NCBI GenBank assembly: GCA_016929435.1 | Contig: JAFGIV010000014.1 | Location: forward strand, 1 to 58,444 | Reading direction: 5' to 3' | From: Candidatus Uhrbacteria bacterium | GTDB taxonomy: Bacteria; Patescibacteriota; Patescibacteriia; SG8-24 | Length of the DNA stretch: 58,444 bases | Shown: piece after piece, positions 3,418-53,014 of the stretch | Layout of the letters: each line of letters starts with the position of its first letter | Position numbering within the stretch: the stretch's first letter is position 1 | Position numbers and translations under genes: made by a program | Notes under the pieces: model-generated | Databases searched by the model: none | Seen by the model: the letters and a program-made list of their open reading frames with translations, nothing else | What the model was told of the DNA's origin: nothing

Positions 3418-4637
3418 GGAGAACCTCCCATTGCCAGATGTTTGAATGCAGTCTGCCTGACTGCGTAGGTGAACTTACTCATCTCGGGATGAGTAACAAG
3501 TCCGTGGTTCATATCCCAACTCACTACGTGAGCCGGAATTCCGAGGCCGTTCAAGATACCCTGTGCTCGTTCGGCTGTCATGTTGTAAACCGAACCTTGA
3601 GTGCAGATTCTCCGCTGGGCCAGAGGGCAGCGAGATGCCTCGCATCCTGATCGTGCGAAAACCTGTACCGAAGTGATGCTCGGAATCCTAAGCATCCGAG
3701 TAAGGGCGCACGACGACTTGAGATAGACGGGGATACCCGGAAAGTGATCGGCGCTCAGTGAGAAGATGGAGTTCACCAGCTCCTGCGGCAACGATTTCAC
3801 GTTGTCATCCCGAGGGATGTCCGGCATGGGGAGCTGGTGAATCTCCACCAGTCCGTTCTCGATACCTTCCGTCCAGCGCAGGCCGCCCGGAACGATCATA
3901 TCGATGACTTCGCCGTAGTGTTTTTTCACCCACAGCATCATCATCTCAATTCTGTCCCGATTACCGCTCCACCCAGGAACGATCGGTCGCATATACCATG
4001 CGATGGTGGCTCCTGCTTCCTTGGCTTCCTCAGCGTTGAGAAAGCGGTTATTGTGCGTGGGCTCAATCGTGTCAGGATTATCTGCCCAGCACAGCGACAG
4101 CATCAAGCCGCGCGTCGCATTCGAGATGCGAGCGAAGTCTAGTTTCCTCCCTTTGGGAACGCCGCCTTTGGTAACGATCCAGAAGGGATTCCGCAGACCG
4201 CGTCGGACGAATCCGTCCATAATCTCGAACGTACTGTCTACGACAGCAGGAGCGAACGGCTCCGTGCTTGCTGTTCCGATGCTGATGATTGTCTCATCAG
4301 CAATAAAGAACGGATGTTTGACCAGTTCATCGAGGATTTGATCTGCGGTAAAATGATTACGTCGTCTTGGTTTTTTCGGCATTGTGCCTTGGTCAGCAAG
4401 ATCTTGATTGGTGTCTTGAACATGACAGTATCTGCACTGCCACGAACATCCAATCCAGAGATCGATACTCAGTGAGCTGTTAGACACGCTGACGCATGAT
4501 AGGGGATGGTTACTGTTTGGCACAAGAACTCCGTATGTGTATTCACGCACAGAAAATTCTCGGCCAGTAGTCATCCCATTGATTGTGACGTGCGGTTCCG
4601 AATTAACGGCCGTAAAGTAGTCCTGCTTAGTTTCCAT
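3414..4637 (-). CDS. Radical SAM enzyme (SPL/SplB-like features)
   Basis: CSWQCRYC (CxxxCxxC), GTASTEPF and VTKG motifs; extra C-terminal Cys cluster CEASRC...C; ATG at 4637 after AAGGAGG. Confidence 0.9.
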   Translation of the reverse strand: METKQDYFTAVNSEPHVTINGMTTGREFSVREYTYGVLVPNSNHPLSCVSVSNSSLSIDLWIGCSWQCRYCHVQDTNQDLADQGTMPKKPRRRNHFTADQILDELVKHPFFIADETIISIGTASTEPFAPAVVDSTFEIMDGFVRRGLRNPFWIVTKGGVPKGRKLDFARISNATRGLMLSLCWADNPDTIEPTHNNRFLNAEEAKEAGATIAWYMRPIVPGWSGNRDRIEMMMLWVKKHYGEVIDMIVPGGLRWTEGIENGLVEIHQLPMPDIPRDDNVKSLPQELVNSIFSLSADHFPGIPVYLKSSCALTRMLRIPSITSVQVFARSGCEASRCPLAQRRICTQGSVYNMTAERAQGILNGLGIPAHVVSWDMNHGLVTHPEMSKFTYAVRQTAFKHLAMGGSP

Positions 4638-4698
4638 AACCCACCTCCTTTTTAGGTTGTAAATGTGCAATTTTTAGAAACCCAACAAGGATTTCCTC
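4635..4698 (-). repeat. 64-nt leader, copy 2 (inverted relative to copy 1), upstream of the radical SAM gene
   Basis: Exact reverse complement of 1-64. Confidence 0.95.
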
Positions 4699-6196: not shown

Positions 6197-6272
6197 GGGT
6201 CGGTAGCTCAGCTGGTAGAGCAAGCGCCTCTTAAGCGTTAGGTCCTGGGTTCGAGCCCCAGCCGACCCACCA
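6197..6272 (+). tRNA. tRNA-Lys(CUU)
   Basis: Cloverleaf, anticodon loop CT-CTT-AA, CCA end. Confidence 0.95.
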
Positions 6273-6305
6273 AAAGCCTCCCATCAGGTTGATGGGGGGC
6301 TTTTG
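6273..6305 (+). terminator. Terminator after tRNA-Lys
   Basis: AAAAGCCTCCCATCA-GGT-TGATGGGGGGCTTTT hairpin plus T-run. Confidence 0.8.
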
Positions 6306-6395
6306 TTTCCGTCTGTTTTTTGTTCGGCCCCCCACATTCTTTTTGGCGTGGCCAAAAGATGGTATAATTAAGTAAGGCTATAAAGGGGCATTATA

Positions 6396-8891
6396 ATGGA
6401 TCTATTGGCGATAATCGGGTCTTTGATTGCGGGAACCGTGGCGGCCGTGGTGGCGTTCGCCTGTTTTTTCCTGATACACAGGGAGTTTCGCCGTCGGAGA
6501 CAGCCCCACCTACTGGTTTTTTCCCTGGCGTTCCTGGCTTGCGGTCTCGGTTTTTCGGCCCTGTTCGTGTCCCGGTGGGCTTGGGCGTATGCCGCCCTTT
6601 CGGCCTCCGTTTTCGGTTATGGCCTGGCGTCCTTCTTCCTGACCGTTGTCCCGTTTTTGGTGTTGGAGGGGGTATCCAGGATTCGGGGCGGACGTTTCGT
6701 CGCCTGGAGAAGCCTGGCCAATGCTGTTGCCGCATTGGCCTTTCTCCTTATCCTGGCGGTTTGGGACCGAGGATCCCTGTCCGCCTTCTTTCCCGGAATT
6801 TCGGGTGGTGCCGGCGGTTGGCCGCTCCACACCCTGACGGTCATTGCCTGGGTATTGGGACTTGCGGGCCTGGCGGCCGGTTTTCTGGCCCGCAATTTGG
6901 GATTCGGGACCCGTCGGTTAGGTGGGCTTTCCCTGGCCAGTTTGTCGTTTGGCATTTTCCTGGGGGCCCTAGTCCTTTCCGGCCGGAACATCGGGCTGGT
7001 TCCGGCGGTCTATGCGTCCGTTTCGGTGTTCATGATCCTTCTTTCCCTGGCCGTTTCCGCTTTCGGACACCCGGACCGGGAGGTGACGGACCGTCCGTGG
7101 CGCATGGTCCAAAGGAGCCTGACCTTCAAGGCGGTCATATTCAACGTGGTGTCCTTCTGGGTGATGTCGTTCCTGGTGATGGCGATTGCGGTGCTTTATT
7201 TCGTCCGCCTGGATGTCCACGGTAAGCAGTTGGCGGTTACGGACGGCACTGTCCGGATGTCGAAATGCGTTACCAACGCGAAAGACTCCGCCCTCCAGGC
7301 GGTCCAGTTCCTCTCCTTTTCCTCCAGGCGATCCCCGATCGTGGCCAGCGGTGACGGTTGGCGGTCGGACGGGACGGAATATTTGCTGGACGCCAACCGG
7401 AGCCAGTTCATTCGGATACTGGACGGCGGCGGGAGGGTGATTTACGGGAATTTTGGATCCGACGAGATCGGACGGGATTTCATCGGGTTGAGGGCCGTCC
7501 AGGGAGCCTTGGCCGGCCGGTCGCTGTCCTTCCTGGAGGAGGATCCCGGATTCGGTAGGGTAATGCTGCAGGCGGCCGCCCCGGTTTCCCTGGAAGGCGG
7601 AAAACAGGGGGTCATTCTCCTGTCCCGCCAGATGGACCTTTGTCAGGATACGGTATTTGGGACCGGTCTCATGCCGACGGGTTTCGGGATGGTTGACCGG
7701 TTCGGCCGCCCGATCGTCAGTGCCGGGCATCCCATTGACCTTAGGCAGGCGACGGCCGAATACGTCACGGCCGACGACGTTCTTTCCCTGATCAGGGAAG
7801 GGCACGGCGGATTGGCGGCCGTTGAGGCAATCGGCGACGCGGACGGCCGGATCGAGGCTTTCGTCTTTTCCCACCTTTCCCCGACCGTGATCCATGCGGG
7901 GGCCGTTCGCCTGGCGGCCGTCATCATACTCATCCTTTTGGCGGCATTGGCCATGATAACGGTCGTCCTGACCTACAGCCTGACCGGCCTGGTCCGGCCG
8001 ATTCGGGAGATGCGGAAGGTGGCGAGGGCCGTCGAGTCAGGCGACTACGGAAGGAGGGTTTCCCACGGCGGCCAGGACGAGCTTGGCCAGCTGGCCGTTG
8101 GTTTCAACCGAATGGCCGTGACCATCGGCGAACAGACCGAACGGCTGCGCCGTCAGATGAGGGAGCAGGAGGATTTCCTGATCAACACCGCCCACGAGAT
8201 GAGGACACCGATCAACATTTTCAGCTGGACCGTTGACCTGATGCGTTTCGGGGATACTGGCCGGATGAACAAGTCGCAGCTGGACCTGGTCCATCAGCTG
8301 AGGCAGACGACCGACCGGCTCTCGGCCCTGGTCCAGAACCTCCTGGATACCGCCGAGATGGACCGGGGCGGGATTTCCGTCCAGGCAGAGGACGTCAACC
8401 TTTCCGACATAATCGATGCCGCCGCGGCGCTCATAACCGTCCGGGTCAAGGAAAAGAGGCTGGAGATGCTTTGGGAAAGGCCGGAACCGGCCATGATGGC
8501 CGTCGGTGACGGGAAGCGCATCCGCCAGGTCTTGGATAACCTGCTGGGAAATTCCGTGAAGTATTCCCATAAGGGGGGACGGATACGGATATCACTGGCT
8601 CCGGCCAGCCGCCGTTCGCCGGACGGCCCGAAGGGGAAGTACCTGAAGGTTACCGTTGAGGACAACGGCCGCGGCATCCCCAAGGACGAGCAGCATCGGG
8701 TCTTCACCCGCTTTTTCCGGTCCAGGAACGCCGTGGCCGGGGACATCGAGGGTGCCGGATTGGGTCTGCATATCGTCCGGCGGCTGGTGGAACTTCAGGG
8801 CGGTGAGGTCTGGTTCGAATCGGTCGAGAACGTAGGCAGCGTCTTCAGTTTCACCGTCCCGGCCGCCTCGACCAGGAAATCCCAGCATTGA
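6396..8891 (+). CDS. Multi-TM sensor histidine kinase (N-terminal TM bundle, extracytoplasmic Cache-like region, HAMP, HisKA, HATPase)
   Basis: H-box TAHEMRTPI, N-box NLLGNSVKY, G1 DNGRGI, F-box, G2 GAGLGL; HAMP ...DELGQLAVGFNRM; TGGTATAAT upstream. Confidence 0.92.
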   Translation: MDLLAIIGSLIAGTVAAVVAFACFFLIHREFRRRRQPHLLVFSLAFLACGLGFSALFVSRWAWAYAALSASVFGYGLASFFLTVVPFLVLEGVSRIRGGRFVAWRSLANAVAALAFLLILAVWDRGSLSAFFPGISGGAGGWPLHTLTVIAWVLGLAGLAAGFLARNLGFGTRRLGGLSLASLSFGIFLGALVLSGRNIGLVPAVYASVSVFMILLSLAVSAFGHPDREVTDRPWRMVQRSLTFKAVIFNVVSFWVMSFLVMAIAVLYFVRLDVHGKQLAVTDGTVRMSKCVTNAKDSALQAVQFLSFSSRRSPIVASGDGWRSDGTEYLLDANRSQFIRILDGGGRVIYGNFGSDEIGRDFIGLRAVQGALAGRSLSFLEEDPGFGRVMLQAAAPVSLEGGKQGVILLSRQMDLCQDTVFGTGLMPTGFGMVDRFGRPIVSAGHPIDLRQATAEYVTADDVLSLIREGHGGLAAVEAIGDADGRIEAFVFSHLSPTVIHAGAVRLAAVIILILLAALAMITVVLTYSLTGLVRPIREMRKVARAVESGDYGRRVSHGGQDELGQLAVGFNRMAVTIGEQTERLRRQMREQEDFLINTAHEMRTPINIFSWTVDLMRFGDTGRMNKSQLDLVHQLRQTTDRLSALVQNLLDTAEMDRGGISVQAEDVNLSDIIDAAAALITVRVKEKRLEMLWERPEPAMMAVGDGKRIRQVLDNLLGNSVKYSHKGGRIRISLAPASRRSPDGPKGKYLKVTVEDNGRGIPKDEQHRVFTRFFRSRNAVAGDIEGAGLGLHIVRRLVELQGGEVWFESVENVGSVFSFTVPAASTRKSQH

Positions 8892-13252: not shown

Positions 13253-16200
13253 ATGCCGACCTTCCGCCGCCATCGCCATACCGGGGGTTTCTCCATATTG
13301 GAGGCGATCATTTCCGTCGCCGTTTTCGGCATCCTGGCCTCCGGCGTCATGATGCTCGTTACCGGCCCGATGTCCGTGGCCAACAAGTCAGCCGATCGGC
13401 AGCGGGCCCTGTTCCTGTCGGAGGAGGGGGTCGAGGCCAGCCGTTCGATCCGCGATGAGGGTTGGGCGGGGCTGGCGGTCGGTAGCCACGGCCTGAGCTC
13501 GGTTTCCGGCCGGTGGCGGTTCAGCGGCCCGGAAGACTCCACTCCCGACGGATTCACGAGGGTGGTCACCGTTTCCGAGGTCCGGAGGGATACGGAAGGG
13601 AACATCGTCGTTTCCGGAGGCAATCCGGACAAACGGACCCGTCAGGTGACGTCCACGGTCAGCTGGGACGACTTCGGCCAGGTCCGTTCGGTCAGCTCCG
13701 TCGCCTACCTGACCGACTGGGACACCTACGACTGGAGACAGTCCACGGACGGGGATTTCCTTCCCGGAACCAGGAACGGCACGCGTATATCCGGCAGCGG
13801 GGAACCGGCGGCCGTGGAGCTGGCGCCTGCCGAAGGGAAGCTCTGGACTTCGGCCGAGGGGAACCTGATCACCCACACGACCGATACCGACTGGTCAGGC
13901 GGCTCTTTCGCGGATACGGAGCTGGTCGGTTCGGGAACGGATGCCTCCATTGCCGAATCCGGACCGATGCGTTGGGTGGAGATCCGGTCCGGCAAGTCGT
14001 TTTTCCACACGACCGACACGGATTTCCTTTCCGGCACCTTCAGCGGCACGGTTGCGGAAGGCACCGGGGACCTGGGTTCGCTGACGGTCGACCGGACTGA
14101 AGGGTGGTCCGTTTCGGTTTCCCCCACCGGTCAGGATATCCGCGGCATTTACATGTTGAGCGATACCGACGGCTGGGCGGTCGGGACAAGCGGCACCATC
14201 CTCCGTTGGGACGGAACTGTTTGGTCGGTATTCGCCGATACCGGCAGTCAGGCCTGGTCCGGCGTCAGCTGCGTCTCGCCCGACGACTGCTGGGCCTCCG
14301 GGGACAGCGGCCGCATCGCCCGCTGGAACGGCACCTCCTGGTCCCAGTTCGTTGACCTGGGGAACCAGGCCTGGTCCGGATTGGCCTGTACGTCATCTTC
14401 CGATTGTTGGGCCGTGGGGAATAGCGGCCGCATCGCCCGCTGGAACGGCACCTCCTGGTCCCAGTTCGTTGACCTGGGGAACCAGGCCTGGTCCGGCGTC
14501 AGCTGCGTATCGTCCGACGACTGCTGGGCCTCCGGGAATAGCGGCCGCATCGCCCGCTGGAACGGCACCTCCTGGTCCCAGTTCACGGATACCGGCAGCC
14601 AGACCTGGAAGGCCGTCCGGATGGTTTCGGCTGCGGACGGTTGGATTACGGCCACAAACGGCAATATCCGTCGCTGGAACGGATCGTCCTGGGTCAGTGT
14701 CGCCTCTCCTACCGCACAATCCCTCAACGGGCTGTTCTGCCTATCGGCCAACGTTTGTTTGGCCGTCGGCGGAAGCGGAATCATCATCGGATGGAACGGC
14801 ACCGCTTGGAGTCAGGTGACTGATTTGGGCGGCCAGGTTTGGTCCGGAGTCGCCTGCGCCTCCTCGGACAGGTGCTGGACAGTCGGGGATGACGGAAACA
14901 TGGCCCGGTACGGTCCCCATTTCCTGCCTTCCGGCACGTACCTGTCGGACGTTTTCGATGCCGGGGAAACGGTCGATTGGGGCTATGCCTTCTGGTCCGA
15001 AAGCCTGCCGGACAACACCGAACTGACCGTGGCGTTCCGTTCCGGCAACGTCCCGGTTCCGGGCGGGTCATGGTCGGCCTGGAGCTCGGAATACACCGAT
15101 CCGGTGAACACCCAAATCCCGTCCCCCTCCTCCAGGTATTTTCAGTATAGGGTCAGCATGTCCACCGGCGATCTCGACGTTGCCCCCAGGCTAGAGGCGA
15201 TTGCCGTGTACTACAACCAGCCTCAGCCGGTCAGCTATTTCGACATGAAGACGATCGGCGATACGGACGGCTGGGCCGTCGGACAGGGCGGGGCCATTGC
15301 CCGTTTCGACGGCAGCGAGTGGTCGTCATACCCGTCGCCCACCTCCAGCACGCTTTACGACGTTGATTTCGCTTCGGCCGACGACGTTTGGGCGGTCGGG
15401 GCCAACGGCACCGTCATCCACTGGAACGGCAGCTCGTGGGGTGCGGTCAGCTCACCGACATCCTGGGCCCTTTACGGCATCGATATCCTGCCCGACGGAA
15501 CCGGCTGGGCCGTCGGCCGGAAGGGGACGGTCATCGAGCTGCGCGGTAACGGGAATTGGTATTCCGCCGTTTCCCCTACCGCCCGTGACCTGAATGCCGT
15601 GAGTCTGGTTTCCGGGACGGACGGGTGGGCCGTGGGAAACCAGGGTTCGGTAATTCGCTGGAACGGCACGGCCTGGTCGACCGTTTCCGTTTCCTACAGC
15701 CAGCGGCTAAACGGTGTCCATGCGGTCAGCGGATCGTTTGCGGTGACTGTCGGCCAGGGCGGGACAGTGTTCGTTTGGGACGGTTCGTCTTGGGTCGGGA
15801 GCGATTCCACCGTATCCAACGAGCTTTTGGATGTCTGGTGCCGGTCAACGGACGATTGTTGGGCCGTCGGCATCCAGCAGACCTTCGTCCAGTGGGACGG
15901 AACCGGATGGTCACAGTACTATTTCAGCAACCCGTCCAATCCCGTAGTGCAGGGGGTTTTTCTCCCGTTGGCCGGTGACGGTTGGGCGACCGGTGAGGGC
16001 GGGGCGCTTTACCGCTATACCGCCTATCGCCAGCCGGTTGCCTACTATACCGGTCCGGCCGTGGATTCCGGTGAGGACGGTGCGGTCTGGAACACGGTCA
16101 GTTGGGAATCCCTCCAGCCCCTCCTTACCGGCCTGTCGGTTTCGGTCCGGACCGGTCCGACACCGTCCCCCGACGGGTCCTGGTCGGCCTGGTCCGGTGA

Positions 16201-17314
16201 GCTTTCGGACGGGGGAGGTTCTACCGTCACCTCGCCGCCCGGACGGTATCTTCAGTACCGGGTGACCTTCACCAGCGGAGATCCGGCGGCCACGGCCGTC
16301 CTGCAGGAGATCGGGATGGTTTGGGGGGCGGTTACCGGGCAGGAACTTCAGGACACCGACGGTTCTGCGGTCAGCGACGTTTGGGCCGTCGGCAGGTCCG
16401 GAACGATCGTCCATTATGACGGCCTGTCATGGTCGCCTGCGGTATCCCCGACCGTCCGGAGCCTGTTTGGGGTGGCGGTTTTGGGCGCCAATGACGCGTG
16501 GGCCGTCGGCGACTCCGGAACGATCCTGCGGTACGACGGCTCGGACTGGTCACAGGCCGCTTCCCCGACCCCGAACGGGCTGCGCGGGGTTGACCTGTCG
16601 GGTACTGATTTCGGTTTTGCCGTCGGCGACTCCGGAACGATCCTGCGGTACGACGGCTCGGACTGGTCGGCCGTCGCGTCGCCCGTATCGGCCAGGCTCA
16701 ATTCCGTTTTTTTGGAATCGTCCGATTTCGGCTGGGCCGTGGGCGACTCAGGCACGATCCTCCATTGGGACGGTGTTTCGTGGTCGTCCGTGCCGTCACC
16801 GACGGTCGTCAGGCTGAATGCCGTAGAGAGCCGTTCGGTGAACGAGGCCTGGGCCGTGGGCAATTCCGGGACGATAGCGTATTGGGACGGGTCCGAGTGG
16901 TCGTCGTTCTCCTCCCCGACGGCCAGGGATCTTTACGGCCTGACCGTCAGGGCCCCGACCGACGGTTGGGCCTGCGGCAACCGGGGTGTCCTTTTGCGCG
17001 ACCCGGAATCCTATCCGCCGACCGGCACCTTCATCTCCACCGTGCTGGACGCCGATTCCCTGGCCGAGTTTAAGACCGCCTTTTGGGAAGGGGAATACCC
17101 TCCGGGGACGGCCGTGACGGTCGCCGTCAGGAGCGGCGATGTGGCCGTGCCGGACGCCACCTGGACGGGATGGAGCCCTGAGATGTCCGGCGATTGGGGG
17201 GCACAGCCGGTTACGGACGGGCGGTATTGGCAATACCGCCTTACCCTGACCACCGGCGATCCGGCCCTGACCCCGTCGTTCCAGGCGATAGTCTTCACTT
17301 ACATGCTACGGTAA
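13253..17314 (+). CDS. Giant minor pilin (1353 aa) with three Trp-rich beta-propeller (YCF48/BNR-like) blocks
   Basis: GG|FSILE prepilin motif; about 20 repeats of ~40 aa (WAVG..GTI..WDG..W); three QYR-containing beta-sandwich segments. Confidence 0.85.
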   Translation: MPTFRRHRHTGGFSILEAIISVAVFGILASGVMMLVTGPMSVANKSADRQRALFLSEEGVEASRSIRDEGWAGLAVGSHGLSSVSGRWRFSGPEDSTPDGFTRVVTVSEVRRDTEGNIVVSGGNPDKRTRQVTSTVSWDDFGQVRSVSSVAYLTDWDTYDWRQSTDGDFLPGTRNGTRISGSGEPAAVELAPAEGKLWTSAEGNLITHTTDTDWSGGSFADTELVGSGTDASIAESGPMRWVEIRSGKSFFHTTDTDFLSGTFSGTVAEGTGDLGSLTVDRTEGWSVSVSPTGQDIRGIYMLSDTDGWAVGTSGTILRWDGTVWSVFADTGSQAWSGVSCVSPDDCWASGDSGRIARWNGTSWSQFVDLGNQAWSGLACTSSSDCWAVGNSGRIARWNGTSWSQFVDLGNQAWSGVSCVSSDDCWASGNSGRIARWNGTSWSQFTDTGSQTWKAVRMVSAADGWITATNGNIRRWNGSSWVSVASPTAQSLNGLFCLSANVCLAVGGSGIIIGWNGTAWSQVTDLGGQVWSGVACASSDRCWTVGDDGNMARYGPHFLPSGTYLSDVFDAGETVDWGYAFWSESLPDNTELTVAFRSGNVPVPGGSWSAWSSEYTDPVNTQIPSPSSRYFQYRVSMSTGDLDVAPRLEAIAVYYNQPQPVSYFDMKTIGDTDGWAVGQGGAIARFDGSEWSSYPSPTSSTLYDVDFASADDVWAVGANGTVIHWNGSSWGAVSSPTSWALYGIDILPDGTGWAVGRKGTVIELRGNGNWYSAVSPTARDLNAVSLVSGTDGWAVGNQGSVIRWNGTAWSTVSVSYSQRLNGVHAVSGSFAVTVGQGGTVFVWDGSSWVGSDSTVSNELLDVWCRSTDDCWAVGIQQTFVQWDGTGWSQYYFSNPSNPVVQGVFLPLAGDGWATGEGGALYRYTAYRQPVAYYTGPAVDSGEDGAVWNTVSWESLQPLLTGLSVSVRTGPTPSPDGSWSAWSGELSDGGGSTVTSPPGRYLQYRVTFTSGDPAATAVLQEIGMVWGAVTGQELQDTDGSAVSDVWAVGRSGTIVHYDGLSWSPAVSPTVRSLFGVAVLGANDAWAVGDSGTILRYDGSDWSQAASPTPNGLRGVDLSGTDFGFAVGDSGTILRYDGSDWSAVASPVSARLNSVFLESSDFGWAVGDSGTILHWDGVSWSSVPSPTVVRLNAVESRSVNEAWAVGNSGTIAYWDGSEWSSFSSPTARDLYGLTVRAPTDGWACGNRGVLLRDPESYPPTGTFISTVLDADSLAEFKTAFWEGEYPPGTAVTVAVRSGDVAVPDATWTGWSPEMSGDWGAQPVTDGRYWQYRLTLTTGDPALTPSFQAIVFTYMLR
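14249..14599 (+). repeat. Three tandem 117-nt (39-aa) near-identical blades within the giant pilin
   Basis: QAWSG...GRIARWNGTSWSQF repeated three times, with long identical DNA stretches. Confidence 0.85.
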
Positions 17315-25605: not shown

Positions 25606-25640
25606 CCCCCTTTACGGCAGTCTCCCAAAGGGAGAGGGGG
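25606..25640 (+). repeat. Palindromic unit, family B copy 1
   Basis: CCCCCTTTACGGCAG-TCTCCC-AAA-GGGAGA-GGGGG; shares CCCTTACGGCAGTC-like core with 25870. Confidence 0.6.
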
Positions 25641-25700
25641 CCGAAGGCGGGTCGGTTTGCCGGTGCGGGGCAAGGGGGGTCGGGCCGGTCGCTCCCCAAA

Positions 25701-25718
25701 TCCCCCAATACTGGGGGA
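25701..25718 (+). repeat. REP-like palindrome TCCCCCAATACTGGGGGA, family A copy 1
   Basis: Identical 18-mer also at 33890, 42554 and 49564, and inverted at 43004 and 43121. Confidence 0.9.
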
Positions 25719-32862: not shown

Positions 32863-33732
32863 ATGATGTTTAAGGATATGCCAAACAGAAAGGTCACCAA
32901 TGAGCAGATAATGGAAGCCCTCTACGGGATGAGGTCTGACGTTAGTGATGTAAAATCCGATGTCGGCGAGATAAAATCCGATATTGTCGTCTTGAAGACC
33001 GACGTCAGCGGGCTGAAGTCCGACGTCTCTATCCTGAAAACTGACGTTAGTGGACTTAAGTCCGACGTCTCGGTCCTGAAATCTGACGTTTCGGTCCTGA
33101 AATTGGATGTCAGTGAGTTGAAGTCCGACGTTTCCGTTCTCAAGACCGACGTTAGTGGACTTAAGTCTGACGTCTCTATCCTGAAGACCGACGTCAGCGG
33201 GCTGAAGTCCGACGTCTCTATCCTGAAGACCGACGTTAGTGGACTTAAGTCTGACGTCTCGGTCCTGAAATCTGACGTTTCGGTCCTGAAATTGGATGTC
33301 AGTGAGTTGAAGTCGTCGCAGGAGCGCATGGGCGCCGACATCGTTAGCCTCAAGTCGTCGCAGGAGCGCATGGGCGCCGACATCGTTAGCCTCAAGTCGT
33401 CGCAGGAGCGCATGGGCGCCGACATTGTCGTCCTGAAGTCCGATGTCGGCGAGCTGAAGTCCGACGTTTCGGTCCTTTCGGAAACGACGGAATTCATAAA
33501 AGACAACGCCTTGATGAGGGATGAGGCTTTTGAGGTTTTTGCGACCAAGGACGACATGAGGGCAATGGAAAACCGCCTGGTTTCCCATATCGACGGTTTG
33601 GCGGAGAGCTTCCGTAACCATAACGATGAATTACTGGCCCACCGCAATCGGATGGATCGAATTACTGGCGGCTTGAATGAGACCAGGGAGAAGGTCAGTT
33701 TGCCGCCCTTGGTTTACGCTGGCCAAGAATGA
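32863..33732 (+). CDS. Heptad tandem-repeat coiled-coil protein (start may be ATG 32878)
   Basis: About 26 heptads LK(S/T)DVS(G/V/I/E) plus three copies of LKSSQERMGADIV(S/V); 21- and 42-nt DNA repeats. Confidence 0.85.
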   Translation: MMFKDMPNRKVTNEQIMEALYGMRSDVSDVKSDVGEIKSDIVVLKTDVSGLKSDVSILKTDVSGLKSDVSVLKSDVSVLKLDVSELKSDVSVLKTDVSGLKSDVSILKTDVSGLKSDVSILKTDVSGLKSDVSVLKSDVSVLKLDVSELKSSQERMGADIVSLKSSQERMGADIVSLKSSQERMGADIVVLKSDVGELKSDVSVLSETTEFIKDNALMRDEAFEVFATKDDMRAMENRLVSHIDGLAESFRNHNDELLAHRNRMDRITGGLNETREKVSLPPLVYAGQE

Positions 33733-33889
33733 CTTGACTGATTGGGTCTTGTTTTGGTCAAGTACTTTTTTAGGGATTCTTCAGAAGTTTCGGATAGTGA
33801 ACCAACGAGGTATCTCAAAAGACCGTTCCCTGAAAAGATCTCCGTCGCCTCTCCCTACTAATCCATACTAATCCATCGGCGTCTCCCAA

Positions 33890-33907
33890 TCCCCCAATAC
33901 TGGGGGA
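33890..33907 (+). repeat. REP-like palindrome, family A copy 2
   Basis: TCCCCCAATACTGGGGGA followed by CTT...GGAAGGGATTTTT, as in the copy at 49564. Confidence 0.9.
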
Positions 33908-34064
33908 CTTACGAGGAAGGGATTTTTATCCCCCCAAGACGTTCCCGAACCCCGTTCCGTCAGCTTGCCTTTACCCGGGATTTACGCATTATTGACAATT
34001 TCGGGGATTGGGGATAGGTTTTCGTAAACGGAAAAATTCAGGATAATGGAAAGGACAGCGAAAA

Positions 34065-40929: not shown

Positions 40930-40958
40930 AAAGACCGGCGGTTTTTCCGCCGGTCTTT
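40930..40958 (+). terminator. Terminator hairpin after leuS
   Basis: AAAGACCGGCGG-TTTTT-CCGCCGGTCTTT. Confidence 0.8.
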
Positions 40959-41016
40959 GGTTTTTGGGCCAAAATCAGTCTTGACCGAACCGTGCCAAAA
41001 GGCAATAAAGACCCGG

Positions 41017-42552
41017 ATGCTGTCCAAACTGGCGCAATCCCCATCGAAAAAAGTCCTGGTCCTGACCGTAACCTTTCTGGTCGGGACGGTTCTCCATGCG
41101 GTTTTTGAGTTTCCTTGGCCCGGAAACGGGTATTTTTTGCCGTTCGGCTGCTTTCTCCTGCCTGCCTCCCTTGCCTTCAGGCGGGGGACACCCGGCCGGT
41201 TATCGTGCCTGATCGCAGCTGTCCTGCTGCTGTCGTCTTGGCGCTACGAATCCGCCCTGGCTGGCCTTCCGCCCCCGGTCGAATGGCCGAAATCCAGCGT
41301 CCGGTTTCAGGGTGTCCTGGTTCAGCCGGCCCGTCAGACCATTCGGGGAACGGTCTTGACTTTCGGGAATGTCCGGAGGTTTTCCGAAAGCGTCTGGGAG
41401 GGGGTGGATGGGCGGTTTCGGGTCTGGATCAGGCCGCCGGAAACCGTCCCGTTCGGTCCGGACCTGGAATGGTCCTGTCGGGTTTGGCCGCCGGATGTCG
41501 GGATGCCTTTTTCCTATTACCTGGAACGGGTGGTCGGGGAGTGCAGCCTGCGCGGTCCGCCGGCCGTTGTCGGCGGGGAGGGGGTTTCGGTCGGTCCCAT
41601 GGGGCGATTCCGCGATTACCTGCGCCGGGTGGCTGCCGGACTGTGGCCGGAACCGGAATCGTCGTTCATGCTCGGGCTGCTTTTGGGGGATCGGGACGGG
41701 ATTCCGGCGGAAATGACCGAGGATTTTCGGGAGACCGGCACTTCGCATATCCTGGCCGTTTCCGGATACAACATCAGCCGGGTGGTTGGTTTGGCCATGA
41801 TGTTGGCGGCTGCGGTTCGTTTGCGTCGCCGTCGGGCCGCTCTCCTGTCCGGGGCGGCCGTAATCGGTTTTTCCGTTCTGGTCGGAGGGCAGGCCTCTGT
41901 CATTAGGGCGGCGCTTATGGGCGGCATCGGGCTTTTGGCGATACTCTGGTCCAGGCAATCCGGTGGCGGCAATGCCCTATGGCTGACCGCGGCCGTCATG
42001 CTGGCCGTTTCCCCGCTGGCCCTGAAGCACGATTTGGGTTTCCAGCTGTCTTTTGCGGCGGTTTGGGGTTTGGGGGCGTTCGGTCCCGGGCTGTCCGAAC
42101 GGTTCGTTTTTGTTCCGGAGGCGTTTGGATTGAGGCAGTCCGCGGCCGAAACCCTGGCCGCCACCCTGGCGACCGTACCGATCATCCTGTTCTCTTTCGG
42201 GCGTTTGCCGCTGGTCGGTCCCTTGGTCAACCTGGTGATCCTCCCGTTCATTCCCTGGTCAATGATGCTTGGGGCCGTATCCGTTGGTTTGGGTTCGGTC
42301 AGCCGCTGGTTGGCCCTGCCTTTCTCCTGGTTCGGGTTCGTCCTGCTGCGGATTGTTGAGGCAGTGGTCAGGTGGTCCGCTGGACTGGGGTTTTGGGCGA
42401 TTGAGGCGGATATCGGCCCAGCGGTGGCCGTTGTTTTGGCGGTTTGCCTGGTCGTGTGGGGATGGGGATGGAATAGGGCCGGTACGGACCGTCGTCGCTC
42501 GTCTTCCCCCCATGAGTTTTCAGGCCCCCCTAAGTCCCCAGCGCCCCCCTAA
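41017..42552 (+). CDS. comEC: ComEC/Rec2 membrane (Competence) domain protein
   Basis: GLLLG, GTSHILAVSGYN, SVIRAALM, GFQLSF.A; its stop codon falls inside the left family-A repeat. Confidence 0.92.
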   Translation: MLSKLAQSPSKKVLVLTVTFLVGTVLHAVFEFPWPGNGYFLPFGCFLLPASLAFRRGTPGRLSCLIAAVLLLSSWRYESALAGLPPPVEWPKSSVRFQGVLVQPARQTIRGTVLTFGNVRRFSESVWEGVDGRFRVWIRPPETVPFGPDLEWSCRVWPPDVGMPFSYYLERVVGECSLRGPPAVVGGEGVSVGPMGRFRDYLRRVAAGLWPEPESSFMLGLLLGDRDGIPAEMTEDFRETGTSHILAVSGYNISRVVGLAMMLAAAVRLRRRRAALLSGAAVIGFSVLVGGQASVIRAALMGGIGLLAILWSRQSGGGNALWLTAAVMLAVSPLALKHDLGFQLSFAAVWGLGAFGPGLSERFVFVPEAFGLRQSAAETLAATLATVPIILFSFGRLPLVGPLVNLVILPFIPWSMMLGAVSVGLGSVSRWLALPFSWFGFVLLRIVEAVVRWSAGLGFWAIEADIGPAVAVVLAVCLVVWGWGWNRAGTDRRRSSSPHEFSGPPKSPAPP

Positions 42553-43031
42553 ATCCCCCAATACTGGGGGACTTAATAGGAAAATTTTATTCATAAGTCA
42601 AATAAGAACATGATCGAATATAGGGAGCCGTATCGACAAGAACTGGTGATGATTGCCAGGGGAATGAGGATGAACCCGACCGAGGCGGAAAGGGTACTTT
42701 GGAGTCGCCTGAAAGGAAGACGACTTGGGGTTAAGTTTAGGCGACAACACCCGATCGGGCGGTTTGTCGTCGATTTTTGCTGTCTCCAATCGCGACTCGT
42801 GATCGAAGTTGACGGAAGCATCCATAAAGACCGAACGGATTATGATTGGGAACGCAACCAGCACCTGCAACAACTCGGCTATCGGGTGATGCGTTTCTCG
42901 AATATTCAAGTTCTTCTTCAGACCGATCGGGTTATCGGTCATGTCGATTCAATGATCGCCCATCCATCTCGGCCGAATATATATAAATATTATTCCTAAT
43001 AAGTCCCCCAGTATTGGGGGATTTAGGGGGG
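42544..43031. mobile_element. Putative 488-bp mobile unit: DUF559 gene between 37-bp inverted repeats (1 mismatch)
   Basis: 42544-42580 versus reverse complement of 42995-43031; same core palindrome dispersed elsewhere; no clear target-site duplication. Confidence 0.65.
42610..42999 (+). CDS. DUF559 / Vsr-like endonuclease
   Basis: ARGMRMNPTEAERVLW..L, FRRQHPIG.FVVDF, IEVDGSIH, D.ER...L..LGY.V.RF. Confidence 0.92.
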   Translation: MIEYREPYRQELVMIARGMRMNPTEAERVLWSRLKGRRLGVKFRRQHPIGRFVVDFCCLQSRLVIEVDGSIHKDRTDYDWERNQHLQQLGYRVMRFSNIQVLLQTDRVIGHVDSMIAHPSRPNIYKYYS

Positions 43032-43114
43032 CACCGGAGATCTGAAGGGGAGCAACCGGCCCGACTCGACCCGCCATCGGCAGGCCAGCGGGTTCAAAAG
43101 GTCCCGGGCCGACG

Positions 43115-43148
43115 AATAAGTCCCCCAGTATTGGGGGATTTAGGGGGG
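43115..43148 (-). repeat. REP-like unit, family A, extra copy downstream of the element
   Basis: AATAAGTCCCCCAGTATTGGGGGATTTAGGGGGG, identical to 42998-43031. Confidence 0.9.
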
Positions 43149-43195
43149 AGACGGGGGATTTGGAGGATCAAATAGCGTATATTGTCTTGGTCAAT

Positions 43196-44092
43196 ATGAC
43201 TTTTTTCAGGAATTTTCTCGTTTTTGCCGTAATCGGCCTTGTGACCGTTGCCGTTGCCTACGGAATCGGTCTTTGGCGATTGGCACCGGATCGTTCGGTC
43301 GTTGATTTTCTGGACATCGGCCAGGGTGATGCCATCGTGGTTCGGCAGGGAAAAACCGAGGTCCTGATTGATGGCGGACCGGATCGGTCGGTCCTTTCCC
43401 AGCTCGGACGGGTCATGCCGTTCTCTGACCGGAAGATCGAGTTGGTCGTGGCCACCCATCCCCATGACGACCATATCGTCGGCCTGCTCGATGTTTTCGG
43501 CCGTTATGGAATTGGGGAACTGGTGATTCCCCGGGCCCTGTCCGGGGAATCCGCCTACCGCCCCCTGCTGGAGAGGGCCGAACGGTTCGGCGTGCCGGTA
43601 CGGACGGTTACGTCCGGGGACAGGTTCATTTTGGGCAATGCCGCCCTGACCGTCCTGTGGCCAGGCGACGATTGCCTGGACCGTTTGGCCGGGCTGGAAT
43701 TCGAGTCTGGAGAACATGACCCGGTGAATGTCTGTTCCCTGGTTTTCCGTTATGACCATTGCGACGGGAACGGCTGCCGTCGGGCCCTGCTGATGGCCGA
43801 TGCCACGGGAATATCCGAGGCCCTGATGCTGGAGGACGGGACGTTACCTTCGGCCGATCTCCTGAAGATCGGCCACCACGGCAGCCGATTCGCCACGACC
43901 GCCCCCTTTCTGGAGATCGTCAGGCCGAAGGACGCCATTATCCAGGTTGGGGAGAAAAACACCTTCGGGCATCCCGGCCATGGCGTCCTGCTCCGTCTCC
44001 GGCATGTCGGTGCCGAAATCTGGCGCAATGACCGGAACGGACCGATTCGGGCCGTTCCGGAAGGGAAGGGGTTTGGGGTGGAAGAGAGGTGA
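43196..44092 (+). CDS. ComEC-associated metallo-beta-lactamase-fold nuclease domain
   Basis: FLDIGQGDA, LIDGG, THPHDDH, LKIGHHGS, N.FGHP. Confidence 0.92.
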   Translation: MTFFRNFLVFAVIGLVTVAVAYGIGLWRLAPDRSVVDFLDIGQGDAIVVRQGKTEVLIDGGPDRSVLSQLGRVMPFSDRKIELVVATHPHDDHIVGLLDVFGRYGIGELVIPRALSGESAYRPLLERAERFGVPVRTVTSGDRFILGNAALTVLWPGDDCLDRLAGLEFESGEHDPVNVCSLVFRYDHCDGNGCRRALLMADATGISEALMLEDGTLPSADLLKIGHHGSRFATTAPFLEIVRPKDAIIQVGEKNTFGHPGHGVLLRLRHVGAEIWRNDRNGPIRAVPEGKGFGVEER

Positions 44093-45420: not shown

Positions 45421-45496
45421 CCGCCCGTAGCTCAGGGGTTAGAGCACCGCCCTTATAAGGCGGTGGTCGGTGGTTCAAATCCACCCGGGCGGACCA
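45421..45496 (+). tRNA. tRNA-Ile(UAU)
   Basis: Cloverleaf; anticodon stem CCGCC/GGCGG with loop CT-TAT-AA; CCA end. Confidence 0.93.
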
Positions 45497-49496: not shown

Positions 49497-49539
49497 GTTG
49501 CGTGTTGGGCGTTGCGGAATGGTCGTTTCCCGTCTTTTT

Positions 49540-49584
49540 CCTAAGTCCCCGTTGCCCCCTAAATCCCCCAATACTGGGGGACTT
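49540..49584 (+). repeat. REP-like unit, family A, extended copy upstream of dusB
   Basis: CCTAAGTCCCC-N4-CCCCCTAAATCCCCCAATACTGGGGGACTT, near-identical to 42529-42574. Confidence 0.9.
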
Positions 49585-49689
49585 GAGGGGAAGGGATTTT
49601 TTTATGGATAGTTTGTTACGGATGTTTTGGGTGTACAAACGGCTTTTTCCCAAAAACGCCCCGGACCAGCCGAGGCGTCTTTATTTTCT

Positions 49690-50637: not shown

Positions 50638-51693
50638 ATGGGTGATAAATATTTGATTTTCAGAATCCCGACACGTTTTTGGCTTACCGAAACCTATGAG
50701 CTTAATGGGAAAGTATCATTGATCCCCGCAGGTGAATTTTCCCAAACACTCGGTCCCAAGACTTGTTTTGCGGGATCCTTTTGGTATGTCGAACGGGTGC
50801 CAGACGATTTAACCATGTTGCCTTTGAAAAATCTAAAGGAATTCATTAGATTTTGGAGCTTTGTTTTTCGGGAAGATTTGGCAGTTACGCATTTTGAGGT
50901 TGAAGAAGAGCACCCTTGCGTTAAGGAATATTTACCAATTAAGAATACCAAGGTAAGAGAGGGTTGGAATGAACCAAAGTTTGACCCTGCAAACATTAAA
51001 TTGAGAATTGACCTTTCTTTTAGCCCAAAAACTTTTCAGCTGTCGGATCTTTTTTCACTATTTGTGGAAGCAGAAAAGCACCTTAAGGATTTGATTGGAT
51101 TGTATAAAATTTACCCAAACAAATATGTGGTTAATAAATTTTTCTGCCTTGATGACAATTATCTTTTTAAGAGCAGCTTAAATGCTGTTATTTTAGATGC
51201 TTTAACCAAAGAAGAACGGTGCACATTCAAGATGTCTTGTCCAAAAGGGTGTAAAAATAATGACGGTATGGATGAATTTCAGTTCTCTCATCCTAAGACC
51301 CCATTTCGCCAAAGAATCAATAATTTACTTTGTAATTTTGAAGATAAAGATTTTTATACTGATATTTGTTTGCATTTCTGTACGACGATAAGGAATAAAG
51401 TTTTTCATGATGCCAAATCCGAAAAAAGACCCAAGACGACTATGCCTGTAATTGACCCAATAACCAGAATGGGTCGACGTGAAGCGACTATGGAAGAAAC
51501 ACTGGTGAGTTTGAGAGACGAAGGTCTTTCGGCCGATAATGCGCAGATTATATTTAGTGAGGTTATTTATTCATTGTTGCTAAATAGATTGATTCCCGAT
51601 CTTAATTTCTGGCCCAAGCTTTCAATGCTAAAAATGGTCACCAACGAAATAACAACTATCGATGATTTATCGGAAGTTCGGGGGGAAGGATAG
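50638..51693 (+). CDS. Putative HEPN-domain protein (ApeA-like), AT-rich
   Basis: RNKVFH (Rx4H) motif in a helical C-terminal region, preceded by a Cys cluster C-x5-C-x3-C...H. Confidence 0.55.
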   Translation: MGDKYLIFRIPTRFWLTETYELNGKVSLIPAGEFSQTLGPKTCFAGSFWYVERVPDDLTMLPLKNLKEFIRFWSFVFREDLAVTHFEVEEEHPCVKEYLPIKNTKVREGWNEPKFDPANIKLRIDLSFSPKTFQLSDLFSLFVEAEKHLKDLIGLYKIYPNKYVVNKFFCLDDNYLFKSSLNAVILDALTKEERCTFKMSCPKGCKNNDGMDEFQFSHPKTPFRQRINNLLCNFEDKDFYTDICLHFCTTIRNKVFHDAKSEKRPKTTMPVIDPITRMGRREATMEETLVSLRDEGLSADNAQIIFSEVIYSLLLNRLIPDLNFWPKLSMLKMVTNEITTIDDLSEVRGEG

Positions 51694-51808
51694 ATAAGGG
51701 CAATATGCATAATCCTCATATTGTTTTTTCTTCTATAAATACGATAATATACGCTGTGTAGGCTTGACGAGCCGTGGAATCGTCCACTCTATCAGACTCC
51801 TTTCCATT

Positions 51809-53014
51809 ATGGCCAACAGCAATCTCGCCAACGCCAAAAGGGCCAAGAACGACGAGTTTTACACCCAATATGGGGATATTCAGAAGGAAATCGGGGCATA
51901 TCTTGAATATGACCCCGATTCGTTTCGAAATAAGACGGTGTACTGCAACTGTGACGACCCGTACGAGAGCAACTTTTTCCGTTATTTCGTGCTGAATTTC
52001 AATAGGCTCGGGCTGAAACGGCTCATCACCACAAGCTATAAGCCCTCTCCGGTGGCCAATACCCAATTGGGGCTGTTCGGTGACGACAGGACTTTGGCGG
52101 AAAAGGGCCGCCCTAAGGTGAACGCCAACAAGTTCGTCATCAATGAGGTCTGCGACACGGACGGCGACGGAGAGTTCAACCTGAAGGACATCGCCGCCCA
52201 GTTGAAGGCGAACAAGAATAACGATTGGGAACCGCTGGAGGGCGACGGCGATTTTCGGAGCGATGAGTCTATAGATTTGCTGAAGCAATCGGATATTGTG
52301 GTGACTAATCCGCCTTTCAGTTTGTTTCGTGAGTTTTTAAAACAACTCGTGGATTATCAAAAAGAATTTTTGATTATTGGCAACTTGAATGCAATTACAT
52401 ACAAAGAAGTATTCCCGTTACTAAAGGAGAATAAGATTTGGTTGGGCAATAACTACAGAATCAACGGAGGGGCAATGTTTTTTGAGATACCCGAGAAAAT
52501 TGCCAATTTGGAGCAGGTTCGCGAGATAAGGACAGATGAGAGTGGGAAGAAGATATTCGTTACAAGAGTGCAAGGTGTTCGTTGGTTCACCAATTTAGAC
52601 CACGGGCGTCGTCACCAACCGATACCGCTGATGATCGAAGCGGAAGTTGTAAAATTCGCAACAAAGAAGCCTTTTGATAAATATGATAATTTTGATGCGA
52701 TTGAAGTTCCGCTAATAAAAAATATCCCCAGTGATTACATCGGTTTGATGGGTGTGCCGATTAGTATTTTTGATAAATATAGCCCCGAGCAGTTTGAGAT
52801 TGTTGGTTATGAAAAAAGTTGCGATCTTAGAACTAAGATTTATCCCAAACAATTGCAGATTGATAAAACGGGGAAGAAAAGTTTTGTTACAAAATTGAAT
52901 GACGGAGCAGCGATTAGAGTCTCAACACCGCCGGATGCTATGACATATTATGTTGTTGATGATGCATACTATGTGCAATCCTTCAAAAGGATTTTTATTA
53001 GGCATAAGAAGTGA
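51809..53014 (+). CDS. Adenine-specific DNA methyltransferase, EcoRI family
   Basis: NL.NAK.AKNDEFYTQ, VYCNCDDP..SNF, GDGDFRS.E, VVTNPPFSLF, GVPISI.DKY.PEQF. Confidence 0.92.
   Translation: MANSNLANAKRAKNDEFYTQYGDIQKEIGAYLEYDPDSFRNKTVYCNCDDPYESNFFRYFVLNFNRLGLKRLITTSYKPSPVANTQLGLFGDDRTLAEKGRPKVNANKFVINEVCDTDGDGEFNLKDIAAQLKANKNNDWEPLEGDGDFRSDESIDLLKQSDIVVTNPPFSLFREFLKQLVDYQKEFLIIGNLNAITYKEVFPLLKENKIWLGNNYRINGGAMFFEIPEKIANLEQVREIRTDESGKKIFVTRVQGVRWFTNLDHGRRHQPIPLMIEAEVVKFATKKPFDKYDNFDAIEVPLIKNIPSDYIGLMGVPISIFDKYSPEQFEIVGYEKSCDLRTKIYPKQLQIDKTGKKSFVTKLNDGAAIRVSTPPDAMTYYVVDDAYYVQSFKRIFIRHKK

Follow-up and report, generated by a model that had tools for sequence, protein, structure and literature searches.

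DUF559 is a very large protein family to which no function has been assigned, and its member in Escherichia coli K-12, YcjD, is uncharacterized. The small repeats of the BoxC/PIT/TM (triplex motif) class have been linked with instability of the genome and occur in large numbers in E. coli, Enterobacter, Neisseria and cyanobacteria. We know of no origin, function or mobilizing activity described for them, although the repeats themselves have been known since the 1990s (earlier descriptions are Bachellier 1999 and Hoyne and Maher 2000). Here we describe a 58,444-nt stretch of Patescibacteria-like DNA (the window) in which a DUF559 gene lies between two inverted repeats of this class, forming a unit of ~490 bp inserted between comEC-N and the gene for its metallo-β-lactamase (MBL)-fold partner. 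Repeats of this class and DUF559 proteins have each been described before; what appears to be new is their pairing. As the sequence-only reading of this DNA had supposed when it knew of no mechanistic description, we found no paper in the searchable literature that pairs the DUF559 family with BoxC/TM repeats.

The motif was defined by Holder et al. 2015 (PMC4666352) as three blocks in a row, C-G-G (on the complementary strand C-C-G), with short loops between them. They counted 23 copies of the TMECO type in E. coli MG1655 and a total of 3610 copies over 262 proteobacterial genomes, with very high numbers of TM repeats in cyanobacteria and Neisseria, and they also reported inverted doublets. 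PIT/BoxC elements had no promoter or terminator activity, and TM loci were more rearranged than control intergenic sites. They saw no mobility gene in the vicinity of the repeats and, in the words of the paper, "never ... remnants of transposases or integrases" (PMC4666352).

The window contains six exact copies of the 18-mer TCCCCCAATACTGGGGGA, at 25701(+), 33890(+), 42554(+), 43004(-), 43121(-) and 49564(+). None is expected by chance (0 matches in 100 dinucleotide shuffles), and the window has no C5-loop-G5 hairpin other than these six. The full repeat unit is a C-rich box, a 7-bp C5/G5 hairpin (also obtained by folding) and a short inner arm. Read on the other strand it is CCCCC-AGTATT-GGGGG-ATTTA-GGGGG(G). 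All three blocks are present in 4 of the 6 copies; the third is degenerate at 25701 and 33890. On this three-block layout we assign the window repeat to the BoxC/PIT/TM intrastrand triplex-motif class. It has the same order of C-block, loop, G-block, short loop and G-block, and like the members of that class, which are abundant in Enterobacteria and Cyanobacteria, it is G/C-rich, dispersed, intergenic and multi-copy, and occurs both as single units and as inverted doublets. In contrast to TMECO, with its 9-nt blocks, the window blocks are 5-6 nt (CCCCC/GGGGG) and of other sequence, so that no window copy matches the TMECO consensus, CCCTCNCCC N3-6 GGGNGAGGG N3 GGGNGAGGG. Sequences that do match it are a copy located downstream of ycjD in E. 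coli and many flanks of metagenomic DUF559 genes (for example, GGGAGAGGGTTAGGGTGAGGG). The other difference is the gene: published work describes no associated gene, whereas the window has DUF559 between two units.

The unit and its neighbors are as follows.

42543-43032, plus strand: the whole unit, ~490 bp, consisting of left inverted repeat, AT-rich leader, DUF559 gene and right inverted repeat
42543-42582, plus strand: left terminal repeat GCCCCCCTAAATCCCCCAATACTGGGGGACTTAATAGGAA (C-box, hairpin, inner arm)
42610-42999, plus strand: intact gene for a DUF559 / Vsr-like PD-(D/E)xK endonuclease, 129 aa
42993-43032, minus strand: right terminal repeat TTCCTAATAAGTCCCCCAGTATTGGGGGATTTAGGGGGGC, with the layout C-block/loop/G-block/ATTTA/G-block
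40957-42552, plus strand: comEC-N (DUF4131 + Competence), left neighbor of the insertion site
43197-44092, plus strand: gene for the MBL-fold ComEC partner (Lactamase_B), right neighbor

The sequence-only reading had described 37-bp inverted repeats with one mismatch around the DUF559 gene (42544-42580 / 42995-43031), stop codons of both genes inside them, and six exact copies of the 18-mer in both orientations, some with longer shared flanks. Each of these observations was reproduced at the same positions. The repeats are 40 nt long when taken as 42543-42582 / 42993-43032, and the inverted pair widens to 61 nt at 84% (42535-42595 / 42980-43040). An outer inverted pair of 50 nt at 86% (42526-42575 / 43117-43166) is formed with a third local copy of the repeat, copy C. 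The left repeat supplies the final ~10 codons of comEC-N and its stop (TAA, 42550-42552), and the stop of the DUF559 gene (TAA, 42997-42999) lies in the right repeat. The flanks common to some copies are CCTAAGTCCCC-N4-CCCCCTAAA upstream and GGAAGGGATTTTT downstream. The block is foreign in composition: its GC content is 0.45-0.52 compared with 0.60-0.66 in neighboring genes, and GC at third codon positions (GC3) is 0.52 compared with 0.7-0.8. The Lactamase_B open reading frame (ORF) was called at 43160-44092; its translation probably begins at the ATG at 43197. A promoter scan found none, a loose terminator scan picked out one terminator-like copy that lacks a real T-run, and an Rfam scan gave tRNAs only.

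Comparison with relatives identifies the DUF559 block as an insertion. In the window, 607 bp separate comEC-N from the MBL gene. In the relative L196, which has the syntenic order LeuRS-x-comEC-N-MBL-NDK, they are 9 bp apart, and in L198 they overlap by 4 bp. Because the two genes abut in both relatives, which are the empty junctions that the sequence-only reading had proposed to look for, the block must have been inserted at the comEC-N/MBL junction. We considered whether the element had also split comEC, and ruled this out. Homologues of ComEC-N come from Patescibacteria/Parcubacteria, and because all the close ones are ~500 aa with no MBL domain, the split is, on this comparison, ancestral in the lineage and not the element's doing. 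In L197, the closest ComEC relative, the junction is 165 bp long, lacks a DUF559 gene and contains unrelated C5/G5 hairpins; it is for that reason uninformative about the exact ends of the element. At this junction L197 carries tandem GGAACTCCCCCGCGTAAAT units and other C5/G5 hairpins (1660-1790). The junction seems prone to gaining such repeats. A candidate target-site duplication, ATGA(G/C)TTTT..CAGG on both sides of the insertion, was rejected: it shrinks to an 8-nt match that was equalled by 208 of 1000 shuffles.

The closest homologue of the window protein (62% identity) is encoded on L200, which was sampled together with L197. There the DUF559 gene lies between unrelated genes and is flanked by 60-nt inverted repeats. 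Window positions 42543-43032 align to L200 positions 484-973. The homology starts and stops at the outer C6/G6 boxes, and the sequences beyond them show no relation. The hairpin loop is ATAC in the window unit and TAGCA in the L200 unit, and within each unit the two arms have the same loop. Because a homologous unit of ~490 bp with matching termini is found at an unrelated locus, we conclude that the gene and its arms travel to unrelated loci as one unit.

We found that DUF559 genes and repeats are also paired elsewhere. We analyzed 80 metagenomic DUF559 loci (the closest 80 of at least 596 relatives, and so not a random sample) plus the other DUF559 loci of this analysis. Flanking inverted repeats scoring at least 16 were present at 27 of 64 DUF559 loci, compared with 1 of 156 shifted control positions. 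When measured from ORF boundaries, 11 of 60 DUF559 genes had such repeats, compared with 1 of 149 other genes (Fisher p=5e-6). With domain boundaries and a score of at least 14, the count was 44 of 81 loci, and 65 of 84 had at least one G/C hairpin within 150 bp of the gene. The sequence-only reading had suggested measuring enrichment beside DUF559 genes, and it is substantial: G/C homopurine/homopyrimidine hairpins number 4.59 per kb of non-coding DNA within 250 bp of DUF559, compared with 0.64 elsewhere on the same contigs (~7-fold, over 84 diverse loci). These counts indicate that the pairing is general across phyla. The loci have one of two architectures, with boxes pointing outward (the window type) or inward. 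Protein identity was higher within repeat families than between them (62 vs 47%, 52 vs 48.5% and 62 vs 47%), which indicates that nuclease and repeat type have diverged together.

The remaining window copies are not associated with a gene of this kind; the window has a single DUF559 gene. The three distant copies (25701, 33890 and 49564) are all intergenic. These and the sequences next to the unit are listed here.

25685-25718, plus strand: solo copy between pilin-like genes, third block degenerate
33884-33923, plus strand: solo copy upstream of infB, intergenic, third block degenerate
49538-49597, plus strand: solo copy whose outer box is complete (CCTAAGTCCCCGTTGCCCCCTAAA), between tRNA-Leu(gag) and dus
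43117-43166, minus strand: copy C, the third local repeat, gene-less, with an extended G-box run GGGGGATTTAGGGGGGAGACGGGGGATTTGGAGG
42526-42542, plus strand: extra outer partial box CCCCCTAAGTCCCCAGC, which pairs with the outer part of copy C
43033-43116: spacer from the right repeat to copy C; its GGCGGGTCG...GTCGGGCCGGTYGCTCCCC is also present in the sequence flanking the 25701 copy

A second and different TM-like motif, TCTCCC-AAA-GGGAGA-GGGGG (25622-25641), lies just upstream of the 25701 copy.

The 18-mer is widely dispersed. In a scan of reference genomes it was present in at least 115 stretches (119 copies) among the matches listed, from many cyanobacterial genera, Chloroflexota, Armatimonadota and others. 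The window-type left box is present on 57 of the 119 copies, giving the 30-mer CCCCCTAAATCCCCCAATACTGGGGGACTT, and 38 of these 57 boxed copies have an inverted partner within 80 nt. That is, they form gene-less inverted doublets. The 30-mer is identical in this contig and in many cyanobacterial genera (L003-L112). This implies transfer between phyla, and possibly an ecological association. DUF559 genes were found at 3 of the 115 loci, in all three cases within ~100 bp of the 18-mer. Around the 119 copies, to a distance of 1.5 kb, we saw no recurrent transposase and no other recurrent protein family. Four further cyanobacterial DUF559 genes (from Stanieria, Dactylococcopsis, Nodularia and Okeania) all have arrays of same-family repeats within 30-300 bp. 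In Dactylococcopsis salina (L203, 1170-2270) the arrays are tandem, with at least five copies of AGTTCCCCCCAAAGTTGGGGGGTTAGGGGGGC units, and lie on both sides of the DUF559 gene.

In E. coli, a partial TM hairpin lies at the stop codon of ycjD, and ~150 bp past it there is a full TMECO type A copy, CCCTCGCCC-CTCTG-GGGAGAGGG-TTA-GGGTGAGGG. The 56-mer of this copy occurs at a median of 19 places per genome over 5426 E. coli genomes, 3378 of which carry ycjD. We compared copy numbers in an evenly spaced sample of 60 genomes. Those with ycjD (n=37) had 14-30 places (median 22, counting the ycjD locus itself), and chromosomes without ycjD (n=22) had 2-23 (median ~4); examples of the latter are uropathogenic E. 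coli 536 with 2 places, CFT073 with 4 and O157:H7 with 15. In phylogroups A, B1 and C, ycjD takes the place of eefRABCD (PMC12817139). The gene is also carried by ST69, of phylogroup D. Outside E. coli, Salmonella is reported to lack TMECO, Enterobacter asburiae LF7a has 143 copies and E. aerogenes fewer than 30. Relative to strain UM146, ycjD and its TM copies constitute a presence/absence segment of 658 bp specific to K-12, made up of TM, a remnant of the ycjD 3' end, partial TM and ycjD (PMC12817139). The remnant is a duplicate of ~60 nt between the two downstream TM copies (L199, E. coli K-12, 6250-6400). It seems to be what is left of a second copy, or to reflect gene conversion at the repeat.

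The ORF at 42610-42999 belongs to PF04480 (DUF559; Pfam E=2.7e-35, 121 bits against a cut-off of 20.6). Residues R45, Q46, D55, F56, E66, D68, G69, D79, R82 and R95 are invariant over 45 sequences, including the window protein. A profile search of the PDB matched 3hrl (DUF559 of Neisseria gonorrhoeae; E=1e-39) and 3r3p (the catalytic domain of I-Bth0305I; E=3.4e-5). An AlphaFold2 model (pLDDT 88) had its best Foldseek matches to 3hrl, I-Bth0305I (3r3p; E=9e-5, template-modeling scores 0.61/0.78) and Vsr (1vsr). Thus, the protein is predicted to have a restriction-endonuclease-like fold and to be a nuclease, and its closest characterized relative is the homing endonuclease I-Bth0305I. We found no transposase or Y1_Tnp domain in the ~40 window ORFs scanned. 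There is no C5-cytosine methyltransferase beside the DUF559 gene, whose neighbors are comEC-N, the MBL gene and NDK; the window has one methyltransferase gene, for an EcoRI-type N6-adenine enzyme, at a distance of 9 kb. We also considered whether DUF559 is a component of a defense system, and rejected this, as PADLOC gave just a marginal match to DpdF (E=0.004).

The sequence-only reading had likened the locus to repetitive extragenic palindromes (REPs) and their REP-associated tyrosine transposases (RAYTs). The likeness holds for anatomy and association. As in REPIN-RAYT systems, inverted palindromic repeats enclose the gene for an enzyme and are also scattered as singlets and inverted doublets, target-site duplications are absent, and enzyme and repeat co-diverge. 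The likeness fails for the enzyme and for the repeat. RAYTs are HUH Y1 transposases, whereas the window enzyme is a Vsr-like PD-(D/E)xK nuclease, and the window repeats have a third block and no GTAG/CGTC tag, being of the BoxC/PIT/TM class that the sequence-only reading had missed. In addition, the window gene-plus-repeat unit is itself found at new loci. The I-Bth0305I (EDxHD, Vsr-like) homing endonucleases share a homologous catalytic domain with the window enzyme, and share presence or absence at a conserved site (empty in L196 and L198, occupied in the window) without target-site duplication. Because the closest characterized relative is I-Bth0305I, homing-type copying is an analogy no less apt than REP/RAYT. 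The window gene differs from this family in having no intron or intein and no I-Bth0305I N-terminal DNA-binding domain, in lying inside inverted repeats, and in its putative target, a dispersed repeat rather than a unique gene. Vsr, the very-short-patch repair endonuclease, has the same fold and catalytic core, but the window gene lacks an adjacent C5-cytosine methyltransferase, belongs to PF04480 and not PF03852, and lies inside an insertion. MITEs (miniature transposable elements with inverted repeats) and their parent insertion sequences (ISs) likewise combine an autonomous unit with terminal inverted repeats and short gene-less derivatives, but the window element has neither a DDE transposase nor a target-site duplication.

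We consider it somewhat probable that 42543-43032 is a compact selfish element in which the gene for a Vsr/I-Bth0305I-type nuclease is centered in a composite palindrome, with the solo repeats and doublets as non-autonomous derivatives and with copying driven by the nuclease. An autonomous unit with such derivatives was also the proposal of the sequence-only reading, and the insertion, the L200 unit and the dispersed gene-less solos and doublets fit it. Each arm of the palindrome would be a BoxC/PIT/TM-type unit (C-rich box plus G/C hairpin), and the copies at 25701, 33890, 43121 and 49564 and the gene-less cyanobacterial doublets would be the derivatives. The nuclease would recognize the repeat, either as duplex or as a transient hairpin, cruciform or triplex, and nick or cut there. 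Host recombination or repair synthesis would then copy sequence from another copy of the repeat. With a gene-bearing doublet as donor, the gene could be copied into an empty doublet, a homing-like event that would leave no target-site duplication. Short units might reach new intergenic sites by template switching associated with repair.

A broader proposal, which we put forward tentatively and regard as plausible but short of probable, is that the small stand-alone DUF559 nucleases, YcjD included, are the missing enzymes of the BoxC/PIT/TM repeats, which are present in hundreds of bacterial genomes. These would constitute a transposase-free, nuclease-driven mobile system that has spread between phyla (candidate phyla radiation (CPR) bacteria and cyanobacteria) by cut-and-copy repair. 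The pairing gives a testable function to two old puzzles, BoxC/TM repeats and DUF559/YcjD, directly in E. coli K-12. If the proposal is true, there is a route other than transposases by which short palindromic repeats colonize genomes.

Several findings weigh against a nuclease-driven selfish element. Most of the 18-mer loci (112 of 115) have no nearby DUF559 gene. The window protein is 44% identical to the cyanobacterial DUF559 protein that bears the same repeat, and so no closer to it than to other homologues. The metagenomic sample is the non-random one defined above, and no one simple transposition model fits both the outward and the inward architecture. In E. coli, the TM copies are on one side of ycjD only, O157:H7 keeps its ~15 copies without ycjD, and phylogroup confounds the contrast between genomes with and without the gene. 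Recognition and cutting of the repeat by DUF559, and its mobilization, are steps that we infer. Finally, a 129-aa nuclease has no strand-transfer activity, and because of this, mobility would have to rely on host functions.

It is also possible, though unlikely, that BoxC/TM repeats are independent structure-forming fragile sites that favor rearrangement, and that small DUF559 genes were captured beside them again and again, or retained there, without acting on them. The excess rearrangement of TM loci with no mobility gene near (PMC4666352) is what this would predict, and so are the many 18-mer copies with no DUF559 neighbor and the persistence of the repeat in O157:H7. Chance capture does not readily account for the lack of any other gene family that recurs beside the 18-mer in 115 loci, for the rarity of such flanking inverted repeats around other genes of the same contigs (the 1 of 149 above), for arms placed so tightly that stop codons lie inside them, or for the loop common to both arms of a unit and the co-divergence of protein and repeat type. 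We think it quite unlikely that DUF559 is instead a structure-specific repair nuclease acting on TM hairpins or triplexes, or a Vsr-like enzyme of short-patch gene conversion that homogenizes them, and is kept beside the repeats while these spread by replication slippage or template switching. The Vsr-like fold, the single-copy ycjD inherited vertically within E. coli phylogroups (PMC12817139), the link of TM repeats with instability and the striking homogeneity of copies across phyla all suit such a role. It leaves unexplained the joint insertion of gene and arms at new loci and the position of the gene at the exact center of the palindrome in many lineages.

Two further explanations we regard as very improbable. 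If the hairpins were terminators, insulators or RNA-stabilizing elements of the DUF559 gene, and the solos ordinary terminators, their location at gene ends and the one terminator-like copy would be expected. Most copies have no following T-run, however, the orientation of the copy at 49564 is at odds with its flanking minus-strand genes, an identical 30-mer across phyla would be unexpected for terminators, and PIT/BoxC lacks promoter and terminator activity (PMC4666352). In a classical REP/RAYT or IS/MITE system, the repeats would be moved by an HUH or DDE transposase that we have not seen, encoded in another part of the genome, and DUF559 would have no role; in favor of this is that our view of the source genome is limited to a single contig of 58 kb. 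A RAYT/IS200-type transposase gene flanked by the same repeat was a finding that the sequence-only reading had named as counting against its proposal. No transposase of any kind was seen in the window, and none recurs within 1.5 kb of the 119 copies of the 18-mer; the repeats have no REP tag (GTAG/CGTC) and no target-site duplication; and Holder et al. found no transposase near TMECO (PMC4666352). The accounts based on captured genes, on repair and on expression signals explain fewer observations than does the nuclease-driven selfish element.

The window has several other features. A 67-nt inverted repeat, 99% complementary (1-67 / 4632-4698), has one arm at the first base of the contig and may be an assembly fold-back artifact; its arms enclose unremarkable genes, for aldo-keto reductase, peptidase S51, an AlaRS-like fragment and a radical SAM protein. 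At 50638-53014, beside tRNA-Val, an ORF with low GC3 (0.36, no Pfam match) is followed by the gene for the EcoRI-type N6-adenine methyltransferase (E=2e-121), probably a horizontally acquired type II restriction-modification pair. There are 21/42-nt tandem repeats within a coiled-coil (LPP-like) gene (32930-33476) and 117-nt repeats within a gene of 1353 aa in the type IV pilus cluster (14166-16922). The tRNA-Ile at 45421-45496 has the anticodon TAT, which is uncommon in bacteria.

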